A stretch of 64,000 bases of DNA from an uncultured Verrucomicrobiae bacterium (GTDB lineage Bacteria > Chlamydiota > Chlamydiia > Chlamydiales > Rhabdochlamydiaceae): positions 1,952,001 through 2,016,000 of the forward strand of contig OY970364.1 of assembly GCA_963718565.1 (NCBI GenBank), given 5' to 3'. A program made the position numbers and the translations under genes. The stretch's first letter is position 1, and the number at the start of each line of letters is the position of its first letter. The notes beneath the pieces were generated by a model that made no database searches, was not told the DNA's origin, and saw nothing but the letters and a program-made list of their open reading frames with translations. This document shows, piece by piece, positions 49,614 to 50,413 of this stretch.

Positions 49614-49655
49614 ATTTTCGCAGAAAATTGCGACTTGAGCAGTCGCAGTGCGACT

Positions 49656-50413
49656 GCGTATGGACTCGAAGTGAAGCAGCCTTGTGCTGCGAACCGGAAC
49701 GCTCTTGAAGACAATCGAAATGCCCTCAAGGGCATTTGATTTGCGAAAGAGGAGCCACCCTCAAAGAAAAATCCCTGCCTTGGCGTATGGACTCGAAGTG
49801 AAGCAGCCTTGTGCTGCGAACCGGAACGCTCTTGAAGACAATCGAAATGCCCTCAAGGGCATTTGATTTGCGAAAGAGGAGCCACCCTCAAAGAAAAATC
49901 CCTGCCTTGGCGTATGGACTCGAAGTGAAGCAGCTTTGTGCTGCGAACCGGAACGCTCTTGAAGACAATCGAAATGCCCTCAAGGGCATTTGATTTGCGA
50001 AAGAGGAGCCACCCTCAAAGAAAAATCCCTGCCTTGGCGTATGGACTCGAAGTGAAGCAGCCTTGTGCTGCGAACCGGAACGCTCTTGAAGACAATCGAA
50101 ATGCCCTCAAGGGCATTTGATTTGCGAAAGAGGAGCCACCCTCAAAGAAAAATCCCTGCCTTGGCGTATGGACTCGAAGTGAAGCAGCTTTGTGCTGCGA
50201 ACCGGAACGCTCTTGAAGACAATCGAAATGCCCTCAAGGGCATTTGATTTGCGAAAGAGGAGCCACCCTCAAAGAAAAATCCCTGCCTTGGCGTATGGAC
50301 TCGAAGTGAAGCAGCCTTGTGCTGCGAACCGGAACGCTCTTGAAGACAATCGAAATGCCCTCAAGGGCATTTGATTTGCGAAAGAGGAGCCACCCTCAAA
50401 GAAAAATCCCTGC
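49656..50413 (+). repeat. Tandem array of six 127-bp units downstream of tRNA-Lys
   Basis: Units start at 49656, 49783, 49910, 50037, 50164 and 50291; a single C/T variant site; last unit 4 bp short. Confidence 0.97.

Follow-up and report, generated by a model that had tools for sequence, protein, structure and literature searches.

A tandem array behind tRNA-Lys

The window (the whole stretch of DNA analysed, 64,000 nucleotides) contains genes for tRNA-Glu and tRNA-Lys followed, on the same strand, by a tandem array of 127-bp units (Table 1). Tandem Repeats Finder (TRF) gives 6.0 copies, with 99% matches and a score of 1502, in keeping with the six units of the first-pass annotation. The TRF start (49656) and the tRNA-Lys end called by ARAGORN and Rfam (49613) put the array 43 bases 3' of the tRNA; the distance ranges from 16 nt, if counted to the 5' module of unit 1, to 42-43 nt in the TRF phase. 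The units abut and are 99% identical across the full 127 bp, and a CRISPR array is ruled out since there are no unique spacers between them. Nor is there a coding frame: the open reading frames are 40-60 aa long and recur in each unit, and the two that were scanned have no Pfam match.

Table 1. Features of the tRNA-Lys locus and its array; positions are those of the window.
Feature	Position	Strand	Basis
Promoter-like site TTGAAA-18-TACAAT, 10/12	49375..49404	+	consensus scan only
tRNA-Glu(ttc)	49429..49504	+	ARAGORN; Rfam tRNA 54.6 bits
tRNA-Lys(ttt), the tRNA mimicked by the array; no CCA encoded	49541..49613	+	ARAGORN; Rfam tRNA 75.9 bits
Palindromic spacer ATTTT-CGCAG-AAAAT-T	49614..49629	+	sequence
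5' module, unit 1 only	49630..49657	+	sequence; alignment with canonical units; start of covariance-model match
Unit 1 core	49658..49758	+	sequence; folds; covariance model; helix covariation in relatives
Unit 1: GT, then P1 5' strand ATGGACTC	49660-49667 (P1 5' strand)	+	
Unit 1: junction GAAGTGAA	49668-49675	+	
Unit 1: hairpin H1	49676-49690	+	
Unit 1: junction GAACCGGAACG	49691-49701	+	
Unit 1: P2/H2 arm	49702-49751	+	
Unit 1: P1 3' strand GAGCCA(C)	49752-49758	+	
Unit cores 2-6, identical 101 nt at +127 n	49785..50393 (49785-49885, 49912-50012, 50039-50139, 50166-50266, 50293-50393)	+	TRF; blastn; covariance model
Whole tandem array, 127 bp x 6.0	49656..50413	+	TRF phasing

A single site varies among the units. 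It lies in the loop of H1 and reads C,C,T,C,T,C, the two T residues being those at 49935 and 50189. This is compatible with the 254-bp higher-order duplication proposed earlier, although one site is no proof of it. Could the array be an assembly artefact? A 157-nt contig (127 + 30) that matches it with 0 differences is present in each of two DNA runs from different studies, one of which may be the source of the window itself; this is the length that a collapsed repeat gives. In one of the two runs a 102-nt contig also bridges tRNA-Lys into unit 1. The array is thus not an artefact of this assembly alone.

The promoter-like site lies upstream of tRNA-Glu and is a candidate promoter of a transcript spanning tRNA-Glu, tRNA-Lys and the array, judged from its sequence; no plus-strand terminator-like site was called between it and the array end. 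Metatranscriptome contigs from two runs, compared with positions 49300-50700, cover only the two tRNAs at 90-95% likeness; they probably come from other organisms and are uninformative on the array. All sequencing runs used consist of contigs, so transcript ends and strands cannot be read from them. The genome has the machinery for tRNA processing, i.e. an RNase Z-like gene, two PolyA_pol-family genes and RNase P RNA, and none of its tRNA genes encodes CCA.

All six units contain ATGGACTCGAA, which is exactly the reverse complement of TTCGAGTCCAT, 11 bases in the T-arm of tRNA-Lys. They also carry the hairpin AATC-G-AAATGCCC-TCAA-GGGCATTT-GATT inside CTCTT/AAGAG, which is present both in the sequence and in minimum-energy folds; both motifs had been singled out in the first-pass annotation and both are confirmed. 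The 5' module of unit 1 consists of a mimic of the acceptor 5' strand (GCGACTT, equal to GAGACTT of tRNA-Lys at 6/7 bases), then GA, then the hairpin H0 (GCAGTCGC-AGT-GCGACTGC). In units 2-6, whose cores are 99-100% identical to the unit by blastn, a 26-nt linker, CCTCAAAGAAAAATCCCTGCCTTGGC, replaces the acceptor strands and H0. The tRNA-end copy has degenerated to GAGCCACC (GAG-CCAC versus GAGTCCAT in the tRNA), and P1 has one A-C mismatch and one bulge. A 17-mer search for a full tRNA-end copy, allowing up to 3 mismatches, matches only the tRNA itself. As the 5' module is confined to unit 1 and the full copy is found in no unit, the window units represent a reduced form, which is common to genus-mates. 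The junctions GAAGUGA(AG) and CGAACCGG, which flank H1, are present in 6/6 units.

A family of tRNA-linked units

A covariance model, R1, was built from nine canonical units. It matches 75/129 genomes of the same taxonomic family, this one included (74/128 without it), 42/77 of the high-quality genomes of that family and 4/144 genomes from other families of the order. R1 also matches 54 of the 80 loci listed from a pattern scan of 185,579 species genomes, and the contig titles of all 54 are chlamydial, 'Verrucomicrobia' or uncultured; of the 26 listed loci with no R1 match, 25 have non-chlamydial titles. Matches beyond the examined genome sets are in contigs titled Chlamydiota, Rhabdochlamydiaceae, Parachlamydiales or similar. 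In the genomes of the taxonomic family R1 gives about 500 matches altogether, with up to about 25 in a single genome. A search of the Chlamydiae literature found no description of such tRNA-linked elements, and the family is apparently undescribed so far.

Canonical units are about 97-146 nt long, on the same strand as the tRNA, and are found 6-51 nt behind genes for tRNA-Phe, Lys, Leu, Tyr, Met, Ser, Thr or Arg; one lies behind a tmRNA-end fragment. The family spans at least 11 tRNA isoacceptors and the tmRNA end, with one conserved three-way junction common to all. Among 122 distinct contexts, 61 have a same-strand tRNA directly upstream and 34 have another unit ahead of them, whereas a tRNA on the opposite strand is found in 0. 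The linkage to tRNAs proposed for the window array is supported. Units lie behind frr/tRNA-Glu/tRNA-Lys at syntenic loci from three genera. No conserved neighbouring protein gene was found. The tRNA-independent core occurs with differing tRNA types; under a rough typing, the nearest neighbour of a unit belongs to another tRNA type in 36/81 units.

In the genome studied here, R1 finds units behind tRNA-Phe (117.8 bits), tRNA-Tyr and a tmRNA-end fragment, plus the window array, all positions of which are reported in the genome-wide run. Unit 1 is matched at 49630-49745 (52.4 bits, E 2e-11), and the four non-overlapping matches listed for units 2-6 score 33.5-37.5 bits (E 1e-7 to 1.5e-6). The window array thus belongs, in derived and amplified form, to a large family of tRNA-linked elements of environmental Chlamydiota that mimic tRNA ends.

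Has the array lost its function? The window array may be just a decayed canonical unit amplified by replication slippage or unequal crossing-over. The missing acceptor strands and H0 of units 2-6, the decayed tRNA-end copy with its imperfect P1, and R1 scores far below that of the tRNA-Phe unit in the same genome are what such decay would leave, and the 99-100% identity among units indicates that the amplification is recent. However, every unit has kept its junctions and its three remaining helices intact, and at least four genus-mates hold reduced-form arrays, at tRNA-Lys or tRNA-Tyr, whose linkers differ and whose H2 changes are compensatory. An array devoid of function is considered very improbable. 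Tandem arrays are common in the family as a whole.

Known RNAs were also considered as identities of the units. Permissive Rfam scans of the window region and five canonical loci return only tRNAs and chance hairpin matches. RtT RNA (RF00391) has no match at E up to 1 in window positions 46000-58000 or the five canonical-unit loci. ARAGORN and the Rfam tRNA model call no unit as a tRNA or tmRNA gene, and the real tmRNA of the genome, located by ARAGORN, is elsewhere, so that a tmRNA or permuted tmRNA was discarded. Resemblance to SRP RNA is limited to a superficial likeness to GAAGCAGCC, and hammerhead and other small ribozymes differ from the units in junction length and sequence. Reverse transcription from mature tRNA is rejected, as the copies lack CCA.

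Structure and mimicry of the neighbouring tRNA

A canonical unit starts with the tRNA acceptor 5' strand, GA, H0 and GU. There follow the complement of the T-stem 3' strand and of four T-loop bases, then GAAGUGAAG, H1, CGAACCGG, the hairpin arm P2 and a direct copy of about the last 17 nt of the tRNA. When folded, an acceptor/T-stem-like helix closes a conserved three-way junction (GAAGUGAAG / CGAACCGG).

The energy of a single window unit is no better than that of shuffles (z -1.2 for the plus strand, -1.4 for the minus strand), so that support for the fold rests on covariation. Among 73 distinct units, 89.5% of the cells are paired versus 65.1% in shuffles, of which 0/500 reach the observed value, and the proportion falls to 35-48% when partners are slid. 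Changes on both sides are found in 35/39 pairs. By helix, the paired cells amount to 98.6% in H1, 94.8% in H0, 91.0% in P1, 90.0% in P2 and 73.4% in the acceptor helix, the least conserved, which is lost in several lineages including the window units. The junction sequences flanking H1 are invariant or nearly so in 48 aligned units. In per-sequence folds, the P2/H2 arm of the window type keeps its hairpin in 9/10 distinct variants of 13-52 nt. The structured nature of the units, suggested from the array alone, is thus borne out by their relatives.

Which strand and which nucleic acid fold? G-U exceeds A-C in H1 (15 vs 3) and P2 (22 vs 9), in related sequences aligned to a model that favours pairs, which is expected if the tRNA-sense strand folds; there is no such excess in H0 (15 vs 12) or the acceptor helix (46 vs 44). 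The covariation is compatible with RNA and with folded single-stranded DNA alike and cannot tell them apart.

The arms track the adjacent tRNA. In 25/61 units the tRNA end is copied perfectly (17/17). The first-pass annotation had proposed checking whether the trailers of other tRNAs covary with their own T-arms, and they do. In a register-free test on 58 distinct tRNA-adjacent units, the 8-nt strand of the motif is the exact reverse complement of the neighbour's T-loop/T-stem in 37/58 and has one mismatch in a further 11/58; mean mismatches are 0.57 to the neighbouring tRNA versus 2.37 to other tRNA types. The 11-mer match in the window is not due to chance, since the complementarity recurs at other tRNAs and changes with them. 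Its last three bases (GAA) fall in the invariant junction GAAGUGAAG; they match UUC, which is near-universal in the T-loop.

Is the complementarity a device aimed at the tRNA, as was first suggested? The canonical partner is the internal copy of about the last 17 nt of the tRNA. As the unit holds both this copy and the strands complementary to it, the 'anti-T-arm' is in the first place half of a closing helix within the unit, a helix that tracks the adjacent tRNA, and not a device directed at the tRNA. Complementarity to the tRNA itself follows automatically from pairing with a copy of its end and is not independent evidence for action on the upstream pre-tRNA. Nevertheless, the 5' strands of a unit could pair with the T-arm and acceptor strand of the same transcript and so trap the tRNA in an inactive fold or direct how its 3' end is processed; the internal copy would then be a competitor that sets the balance. 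The unit arms do track the neighbouring tRNA, and folding tRNA-Lys with the first unit, a check that had also been proposed, does pair the tRNA 3' end with the unit: in the minimum-energy fold the last 19 nt of the tRNA are paired with it, and the summed pair probability is 9.25 of 11 for T-arm/anti-T-arm and 0 for the anti-T-arm and the unit's own decayed partner. The palindromic spacer of the window lengthens the complementarity between the acceptor 3' strand of tRNA-Lys and the unit 5' strand; similar spacers, present at most of the 61 tRNA-to-unit junctions, extend exactly this helix. One lineage has kept the acceptor 5' strand although the unit's own 3' partner is gone. Against this, canonical units hold an equally good internal partner, the tRNA folds first during transcription, and the internal units of an array are distant from the tRNA. 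In addition, 22/61 spacers have the look of an intrinsic terminator, so that most transcripts would end ahead of the unit, which would then rarely be on the RNA of the tRNA. Action on the pre-tRNA is considered improbable.

RNA or DNA?

On balance, we lean towards reading the units as structured RNA in the tRNA trailer, released by tRNA-processing enzymes, with the window holding a derived, amplified array. We infer that the units are transcribed and processed, and that RNA rather than DNA is the functional form. The units would be co-transcribed with the tRNA, by read-through where the spacer resembles a terminator; no consistent promoter or terminator belonging to the units themselves was seen. 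Through the copied tRNA end they would become substrates for tRNA end-trimming enzymes: RNase P would act on their 5' side, and RNase Z or RNase E, along with the CCA-adding enzyme, on their 3' side. The functional part would be the three-way junction. Because the acceptor helix is lost in several lineages, tRNA-like processing cannot apply to all copies. In the window, units 2-6 are without acceptor strands and H0, and their tRNA-end copy has decayed; if the six junction domains are made, they would therefore be made as a single trailer following tRNA-Lys. Counting against the RNA reading are the terminator-like spacers, the lack of a consistent promoter or terminator of the units' own, the poorly conserved acceptor helix and the missing G-U excess in H0 and the acceptor helix. 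In addition, the array in the window may be decaying and owe its copies to slippage, and units take part in DNA-level events at island ends.

Such events suit a reading in which the units work as DNA, as extra attachment sites or gene-free integrative modules, i.e. a second landing site or a remnant of integration and excision, with arrays growing by repeated integration or unequal exchange between copies. The tRNA 3' end is the usual crossover segment of tyrosine integrases that target tRNA genes, and every unit terminates in a copy of it. In this genome, tRNA-Phe is followed by its unit, a tyrosine integrase 205 nt further on and an island, which is bounded 8.5 kb downstream by a 63-nt, 95% identical copy of the 3' half of the tRNA-Phe unit. 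Of 18 inspected units with no full tRNA, at least 10 are preceded by a tRNA 3' half beginning in the anticodon loop, as is typical of island junctions; a further two, and the tmRNA-type unit of this genome, lie behind a shared island end fused to the T-stem/acceptor 3' strand. A genus-mate has tRNA-Tyr with a unit; about 10.2 kb downstream comes the 3' half of a tRNA-Tyr with two units, and another unit is found about 6.5 kb further on, with accessory genes in the intervals. Accessory genes are often present downstream of units, namely Fic, AbiE, AbiJ, AAA_16 and DUF3800. The frequent tandem arrays also fit this reading.

Several findings speak against it. An integrase lies within 1.5 kb at only 1/30 best-hit loci. 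In the 129 genomes, the presence of units is independent of that of the tested integrase family: the two occur together in 43 (42.4 expected), units only in 32, the integrase only in 30 and neither in 24. A double-stranded attachment site has no need of three freely covarying hairpins and two near-invariant unpaired junctions, and a duplicated crossover segment leaves the acceptor 5' strand unexplained. Integration into a structured RNA gene, as into tRNA and tmRNA genes, is itself compatible with the RNA reading. A DNA-level role is rated unlikely, though to be taken seriously. The related proposal that the array is the amplified scar of a tRNA-targeting element may yet hold but is not supported as stated: the family is conserved across genera at syntenic tRNA loci and is not associated with the single integrase family that was tested.

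Integron attC sites and the CTX phage attachment site are recombination substrates formed by a folded single strand. By analogy, a unit folded as single-stranded DNA could rebuild a duplex equal to the tRNA gene's 3' end, and a tyrosine recombinase could exchange the two. Both target strands are indeed found within one unit, about 75 nt apart, and pair; the hairpins conserve structure more than sequence; arrays and a link to integration hot spots are present; and the core is found at differing tRNA types, as in the rough typing above. Yet no recombinase gene travels with the units (30 loci; 129 genomes for one integrase family), 0 pattern matches are on viral contigs, and a plasmid blastn search matched only the tRNA-Phe part of the query. 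Near-invariant unpaired junctions and G-U pairs suit RNA better, and no single-stranded stage is known here. Of the readings weighed, this one is the most improbable.

A bolder reading, which we regard as doubtful, is that of a retargetable mimic of the tRNA end. The junction core would move between tRNA and tmRNA loci and have its arms rewritten to copy both end strands of the gene that it comes to follow; since the arms copy both strands of the tRNA 3' end, the core would be aimed at that end. The core, binding a protein or catalytic, might gate tRNA maturation, or the unit might be an island landing site defined by pairing. If true, this would be a system programmed by base pairing with no known relative.

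Relation to known elements

The tRNA-linked repeats (TLRs) of E. coli come closest. According to one source (PMC8144298), their 3' end is identical over 18-19 bp to the end of the upstream tRNA or rRNA, with 1-5 repeats per locus; some are transcribed by terminator read-through and then processed. They have been known since 1978 and, three rRNA-linked members aside, are still without an assigned function (PMC8144298). As defined there, TLRs lie directly behind a tRNA or rRNA gene in the same operon, one to several per locus (PMC8144298). The chlamydial units share this position on the same strand, in tandem, and the window array, with six copies behind tRNA-Lys, has it too. The second TLR feature, the 3' copy, is perfect in the 25/61 canonical units noted above and a decayed remnant in the window units. 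The 178-bp repeats behind tyrT-tyrV, which hold rttR (RtT RNA, RF00391), are one example of TLRs. In the E. coli rttR unit (K-12 tyrV trailer only), the reverse complement of the copied tRNA-Tyr end lies about 100 nt upstream of it, and in the minimum-energy fold of the tyrV trailer copy and complement pair around a branched domain. The closing-helix design is thus common to the tyrV-trailer units and the chlamydial units. There is no detectable homology, however: the best R1 score at the E. coli locus is 4.5 bits (E 1.4). Unlike TLRs, the chlamydial units also copy the acceptor 5' strand and have one conserved junction over at least 11 isoacceptors and the tmRNA end, and they are far more numerous.

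RrA, RrB and RrF are TLRs behind the 5S rRNA in E. coli rrnA, rrnB and rrnD. They offer a model for the production of units in spite of a terminator-like spacer ahead of them. Through GGA motifs they bind Hfq and CsrA, and they follow rRNA, whereas the chlamydial units follow tRNA.

Other systems resemble the units in part. In t-elements (plant mitochondria, haloarchaeal rRNA operons) and in mascRNA behind MALAT1, a helix like that of the acceptor and T-arm lets RNase P and RNase Z cut non-tRNA transcripts. These are generic tRNA mimics, whereas the chlamydial units copy their particular neighbour and enclose a junction domain. Genes for tRNA and tmRNA are attachment sites of integrases, and cis-mobilizable elements are gene-free remnants flanked by att sites. 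Attachment sites share with the units a direct repeat of the tRNA 3' end as a boundary, and one island here is bounded by unit sequence, but the units differ in their covarying hairpins, complementary strands and lack of a link to the tested integrase family. The RNA units of ToxI, from type III toxin-antitoxin systems, are about 36 nt long and precede the toxin gene. They are likewise structured, in tandem and spacer-free, but the chlamydial units are 97-146 nt long and lie behind tRNAs, with no conserved neighbouring protein gene.

Significance

A phylogenetically remote group of bacteria thus has a much larger and better resolved family on the TLR plan, in which a copied tRNA end and the complement of this copy enclose a branched domain. 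It comprises hundreds of copies, with strong covariation and an invariant junction. For these reasons the question of what TLRs do can now be tested: the junction could serve to fish for a partner, the processing sites predicted here could be mapped, and the rule by which the arms track the tRNA can be examined over at least 11 isoacceptors. In these genomes the family also lies where tRNA genes meet variable, defence-rich DNA, and so bears on how islands choose their targets and keep them intact.

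The unit family

The tandem array behind tRNA-Lys belongs to a new, large family of tRNA-linked elements, of a kind already known but unexplained. A covariance model of the family (R1; 125 positions, 39 pairs) was built from nine canonical units, i.e. full-plan members with the acceptor 5' strand, hairpin H0 and the copy of the tRNA end, and its structure was checked by hand. In the window's own genome, R1 scores the unit behind tRNA-Phe at 117.8 bits, that behind tRNA-Tyr at 59.8, a unit at 827 kb at 47.5 and the window array at 36-52. Matches occur in 75 of 129 genomes of the taxonomic family, the window's own included (42 of the 77 high-quality genomes), and in 22 of 40 genera; there are about 500, many of them in tandem arrays. 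Other families of the order have units in 4 of 144 sampled genomes. A pattern scan of one genome per species gave at least 123 stretches, and 80 loci were listed and tested with R1. Among these listed matches 54 are confirmed, with contig titles of Chlamydiae, Chlamydiota, Parachlamydiales, Rhabdochlamydia(ceae), Simkaniaceae, 'Verrucomicrobia' or uncultured bacterium; 25 of the 26 unconfirmed ones have non-chlamydial titles, and their number is about what chance predicts. No Rfam family matches the units in the window region and canonical-unit loci scanned, and no description of such elements was found in the literature searched.

Coordinates of the array, its surroundings and related loci (window positions unless prefixed; G000:C1, the window's own genome)
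Feature	Position	Strand	Remarks
Promoter-like site	49375-49404
tRNA-Glu	49429-49504	same as tRNA-Lys	ARAGORN, Rfam
tRNA-Lys(ttt)	49541-49613	same as tRNA-Glu	ARAGORN, Rfam
Tandem array	49656-50413	+	Tandem Repeats Finder: period 127, 6.0 copies, 99% matches; sole strong array of the window
T at the variable site	49935 and 50189
G+C-rich stretch	50500-51530
Terminator-like hairpins, mirror images	50728-50745 and 50938-50921	+ and -
DDE_Tnp_1 transposase, C-terminal fragment	51099-51527
AbiEii toxin and AbiEi antitoxin	51819-53278	-	nucleotidyltransferase toxin, Pfam E 2.2e-36; 1.4 kb downstream of array
tRNA-Met(cat), four calls	G000:C1 about 168000-272000		184047, 213330 and 245095 only 68-69 nt; 271579, 75 nt
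tmRNA-type unit	G000:C1:827054-827198		locus L193, 5055-5199
tmRNA gene	G000:C1 952243-952610
tRNA-Phe, unit, tyrosine integrase and island	G000:C1:2116941-2125667		locus L192; island 8.5 kb
E. coli rttR-type repeats	NC_000913.3 1286000-1288200		locus L205, behind tyrV

The window array

Sequence observations made in the first-pass annotation hold up. Every unit carries ATGGACTCGAA, the exact reverse complement of TTCGAGTCCAT of tRNA-Lys, together with the hairpin described there, and the one variable site (C,C,T,C,T,C along the array) falls in a hairpin loop. None of the window ORF calls spans the array, and two short array ORFs that were scanned match no Pfam family. No terminator-like site was found on the + strand from the promoter-like site to the array end. 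Is the array an artefact? The repeat exists outside this assembly, because a 157-nt contig (127 + 30) matches it with 0 differences in each of two DNA runs from different studies, and in one of them a further contig bridges tRNA-Lys into unit 1, the first copy; one of the runs, though, could be the one from which the assembly was made. The copy number of 6.0 is as assembled, the DNA-run contigs attesting the repeat and not its count.

At the distal border, the G+C-rich stretch with its hairpins and, after these, the transposase fragment looks like insertion sequence remains. The AbiE pair lies further on; AbiEii relatives are reported to modify tRNA 3' ends.

Plan and pairing of the unit

A blastn search with one unit in its own 2.28-Mb genome reveals a partial relative directly behind tRNA-Thr/tRNA-Tyr. 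Its motif, CTGGACTCGAA, fits the T-arm of tRNA-Tyr and not that of tRNA-Lys; the element begins with the acceptor 5' strand of tRNA-Tyr, one base different, and ends in an exact copy of that tRNA's last 14 nt. In relatives the plan is complete. The acceptor 5' strand is followed by GA, hairpin H0, GU and the 5' strand of P1 (four T-stem bases and four complementary to the T-loop), then by GAAGUGAAG, hairpin H1, CGAACCGG and hairpin arm P2, and the 3' end is a direct copy of the last ~17 nt of the tRNA. The 'anti-T-arm' thus forms the 5' side of a closing helix, P1, whose 3' strand is the tRNA-end copy; the last GAA of the 11-mer is part of an invariant junction.

Pairing was assessed in 73 distinct units aligned to R1. 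Standard pairs fill 89.5% of cells. Shuffles give 65.1%, none of 500 getting as high as the real alignment, and sliding the partners by 1-3 columns lowers the figure to 35-48%. Fitting the alignment to R1 biases it towards pairs, and the sequences are related, but the margin over shuffles is nevertheless wide. Both-sided changes occur at 35 of the 39 pairs, and hairpin sequences differ visibly from locus to locus. Pairing is 98.6% in H1, 94.8% in H0, 91.0% in P1, 90.0% in P2 and 73.4% in the acceptor. G-U outnumbers A-C in H1 (15 vs 3) and P2 (22 vs 9), which gives modest support to the tRNA-sense strand as the one that folds; H0 (15 vs 12) and the acceptor (46 vs 44) have no such excess. Window units are a genus-specific form in which the junction gains four bases (AACG) and the P2/H2 arm is lengthened; of 10 distinct variants of this arm, 13-52 nt in size, 9 keep a hairpin.

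Fit to the neighbouring tRNA

In 122 distinct unit contexts, a non-random sample of best hits plus pattern hits, a same-strand tRNA lies directly upstream in 61 and an opposite-strand tRNA in none; 34 units stand behind another unit, 6 at a locus end and 21 in neither position. The hosts are tRNA-Phe, Lys, Leu (tag, taa, caa, gag), Tyr, Ser(tga), Met, Thr(cgt) and Arg(tct), with a diverged unit behind Ser(gct) in another family. Of the 61 tRNA-adjacent units, 25 copy the tRNA end perfectly (17/17). Among 58 distinct ones, 37 have a P1 5' strand that is reverse-complementary to the neighbour's T-loop/T-stem without a mismatch, 11 have one mismatch, 8 have two and 2 have three, for a mean of 0.57 mismatches to the neighbour vs 2.37 to other tRNA types. 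The first seven bases likewise average 1.38 differences from the acceptor 5' strand of the neighbour and 3.85 from that of other types. The covariation with the neighbouring T-arm sought in the first pass is thus present, and the interpretation given there has partial support; in canonical units the anti-T-arm is in the first place one strand of the unit's own helix.

The tRNA-independent part has its nearest neighbour at another locus with the same tRNA type in 45 of 81 cases (rough typing, chance ~0.21), and in the window's genus Lys and Tyr units share one special arm. Since this part is not tied to tRNA type and the arm is common to Lys and Tyr, cores pass between tRNA loci, after which the arms adapt to the tRNA now beside them. 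Spacers between tRNA and unit (6-51 nt) are almost all palindromic, extending the complementarity of the tRNA acceptor 3' strand with the unit 5' strand; 22 of 61 resemble intrinsic terminators, and most others, the window's included, are short T-run/A-run palindromes. Such palindromes would be kept matched in their arms if quasi-palindromes undergo templated correction as the DNA is replicated.

In the window array, unit 1 alone keeps the acceptor mimic, at its 5' end, and the tRNA-end copy is decayed. Refolding of tRNA-Lys by unit 1, proposed in the first pass, stays a live idea at this locus, because in the predicted fold of the two the tRNA's own 3' end pairs with the unit. Equally, the array may be a decaying copy that was amplified recently, but at least four genus-mates share the reduced array form at tRNA-Lys or tRNA-Tyr.

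Islands and integrases

Do the units depend on integrases? A tyrosine integrase gene lies 205 nt beyond the tRNA-Phe unit, the genome's best, followed by an island with Tn5-type and DDE transposase genes and an M78 peptidase. The island ends, 8.5 kb further on, in a 63-nt repeat of the unit's 3' half at 95% identity, so an integrase has used unit sequence as attachment site. Against general dependence, an integrase lies within 1.5 kb at just 1 of 30 best-hit loci, and among 129 genomes the occurrence of units is independent of that integrase family (both 43, unit only 32, integrase only 30, neither 24). Moreover, no unit copy was found on the viral contigs searched, and on the plasmids searched only the tRNA part of the query matched.

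Of 18 inspected units lacking a complete tRNA upstream, at least 10 stand behind a tRNA 3' half that starts in the anticodon loop; for three more, the preceding sequence is a shared island end joined to a T-stem/acceptor strand. CAATCAAAAGTTCTGAATGCGTC or a near variant lies upstream of units at three loci (L097, L109, L193), where it directly joins the T-stem/acceptor 3' strand of one gene or another (tRNA-Tyr, a tRNA-Leu-like end, tmRNA). It resembles the conserved end that an island family crossing over in the T-loop would have. Frequent accessory genes downstream of units are Fic, AbiE, AbiJ, AAA_16 and DUF3800.

The 827-kb unit copies the 3' end of tmRNA and is preceded by a fragment that matches the genome's own tmRNA 3' end exactly, 125 kb from the real gene. 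IS607-type TnpA (serine recombinase) and TnpB genes follow it after about 100 nt; this IS pair recurs about 730 nt beyond the tRNA-Tyr unit. The four tRNA-Met(cat) calls are interspersed with at least seven homologues of the island integrase, and the region has the appearance of successive islands stacked at tRNA-Met.

A parallel in E. coli and possible role

Passages of PMC8144298 give 22 E. coli tRNA-linked repeats at ten loci, one to five per locus, with no known function except for three rRNA-linked members, which are made by terminator read-through, processed, and bound by Hfq and CsrA; those passages make no mention of a reverse-complement strand in rttR-type repeats. In the K-12 tyrT-tyrV trailer, every 178-bp unit has a 19-nt copy of the tRNA-Tyr end and, about 100 nt upstream, its reverse complement, GGGGAAGGAT; the two pair in the minimum-energy fold of rttR. 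The design, a tRNA-end copy and its complement predicted to pair, is identical to that of the chlamydial units. Homology between the two is nevertheless undetectable, as R1 scores at most 4.5 bits on the E. coli locus and the rttR model (RF00391) has no match in the chlamydial units.

What might the units do? The reading ranked highest, though held with a confidence only just past the halfway mark, is that they act as RNA. It is placed first because of the covarying hairpins around invariant unpaired junctions, the constant orientation with the tRNA, the synteny across genera and the E. coli precedent. Minihelices are established substrates of tRNA-processing enzymes. The genome has an RNase Z-like gene (292.2 bits vs a family cut-off of 292.95), two PolyA_pol-family genes and RNase P RNA, and CCA is encoded by 0 of its 43 tRNA genes. 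With processing genes present and no CCA encoded, an acceptor/T-stem mimic ending at the discriminator base would be a plausible substrate of such enzymes.
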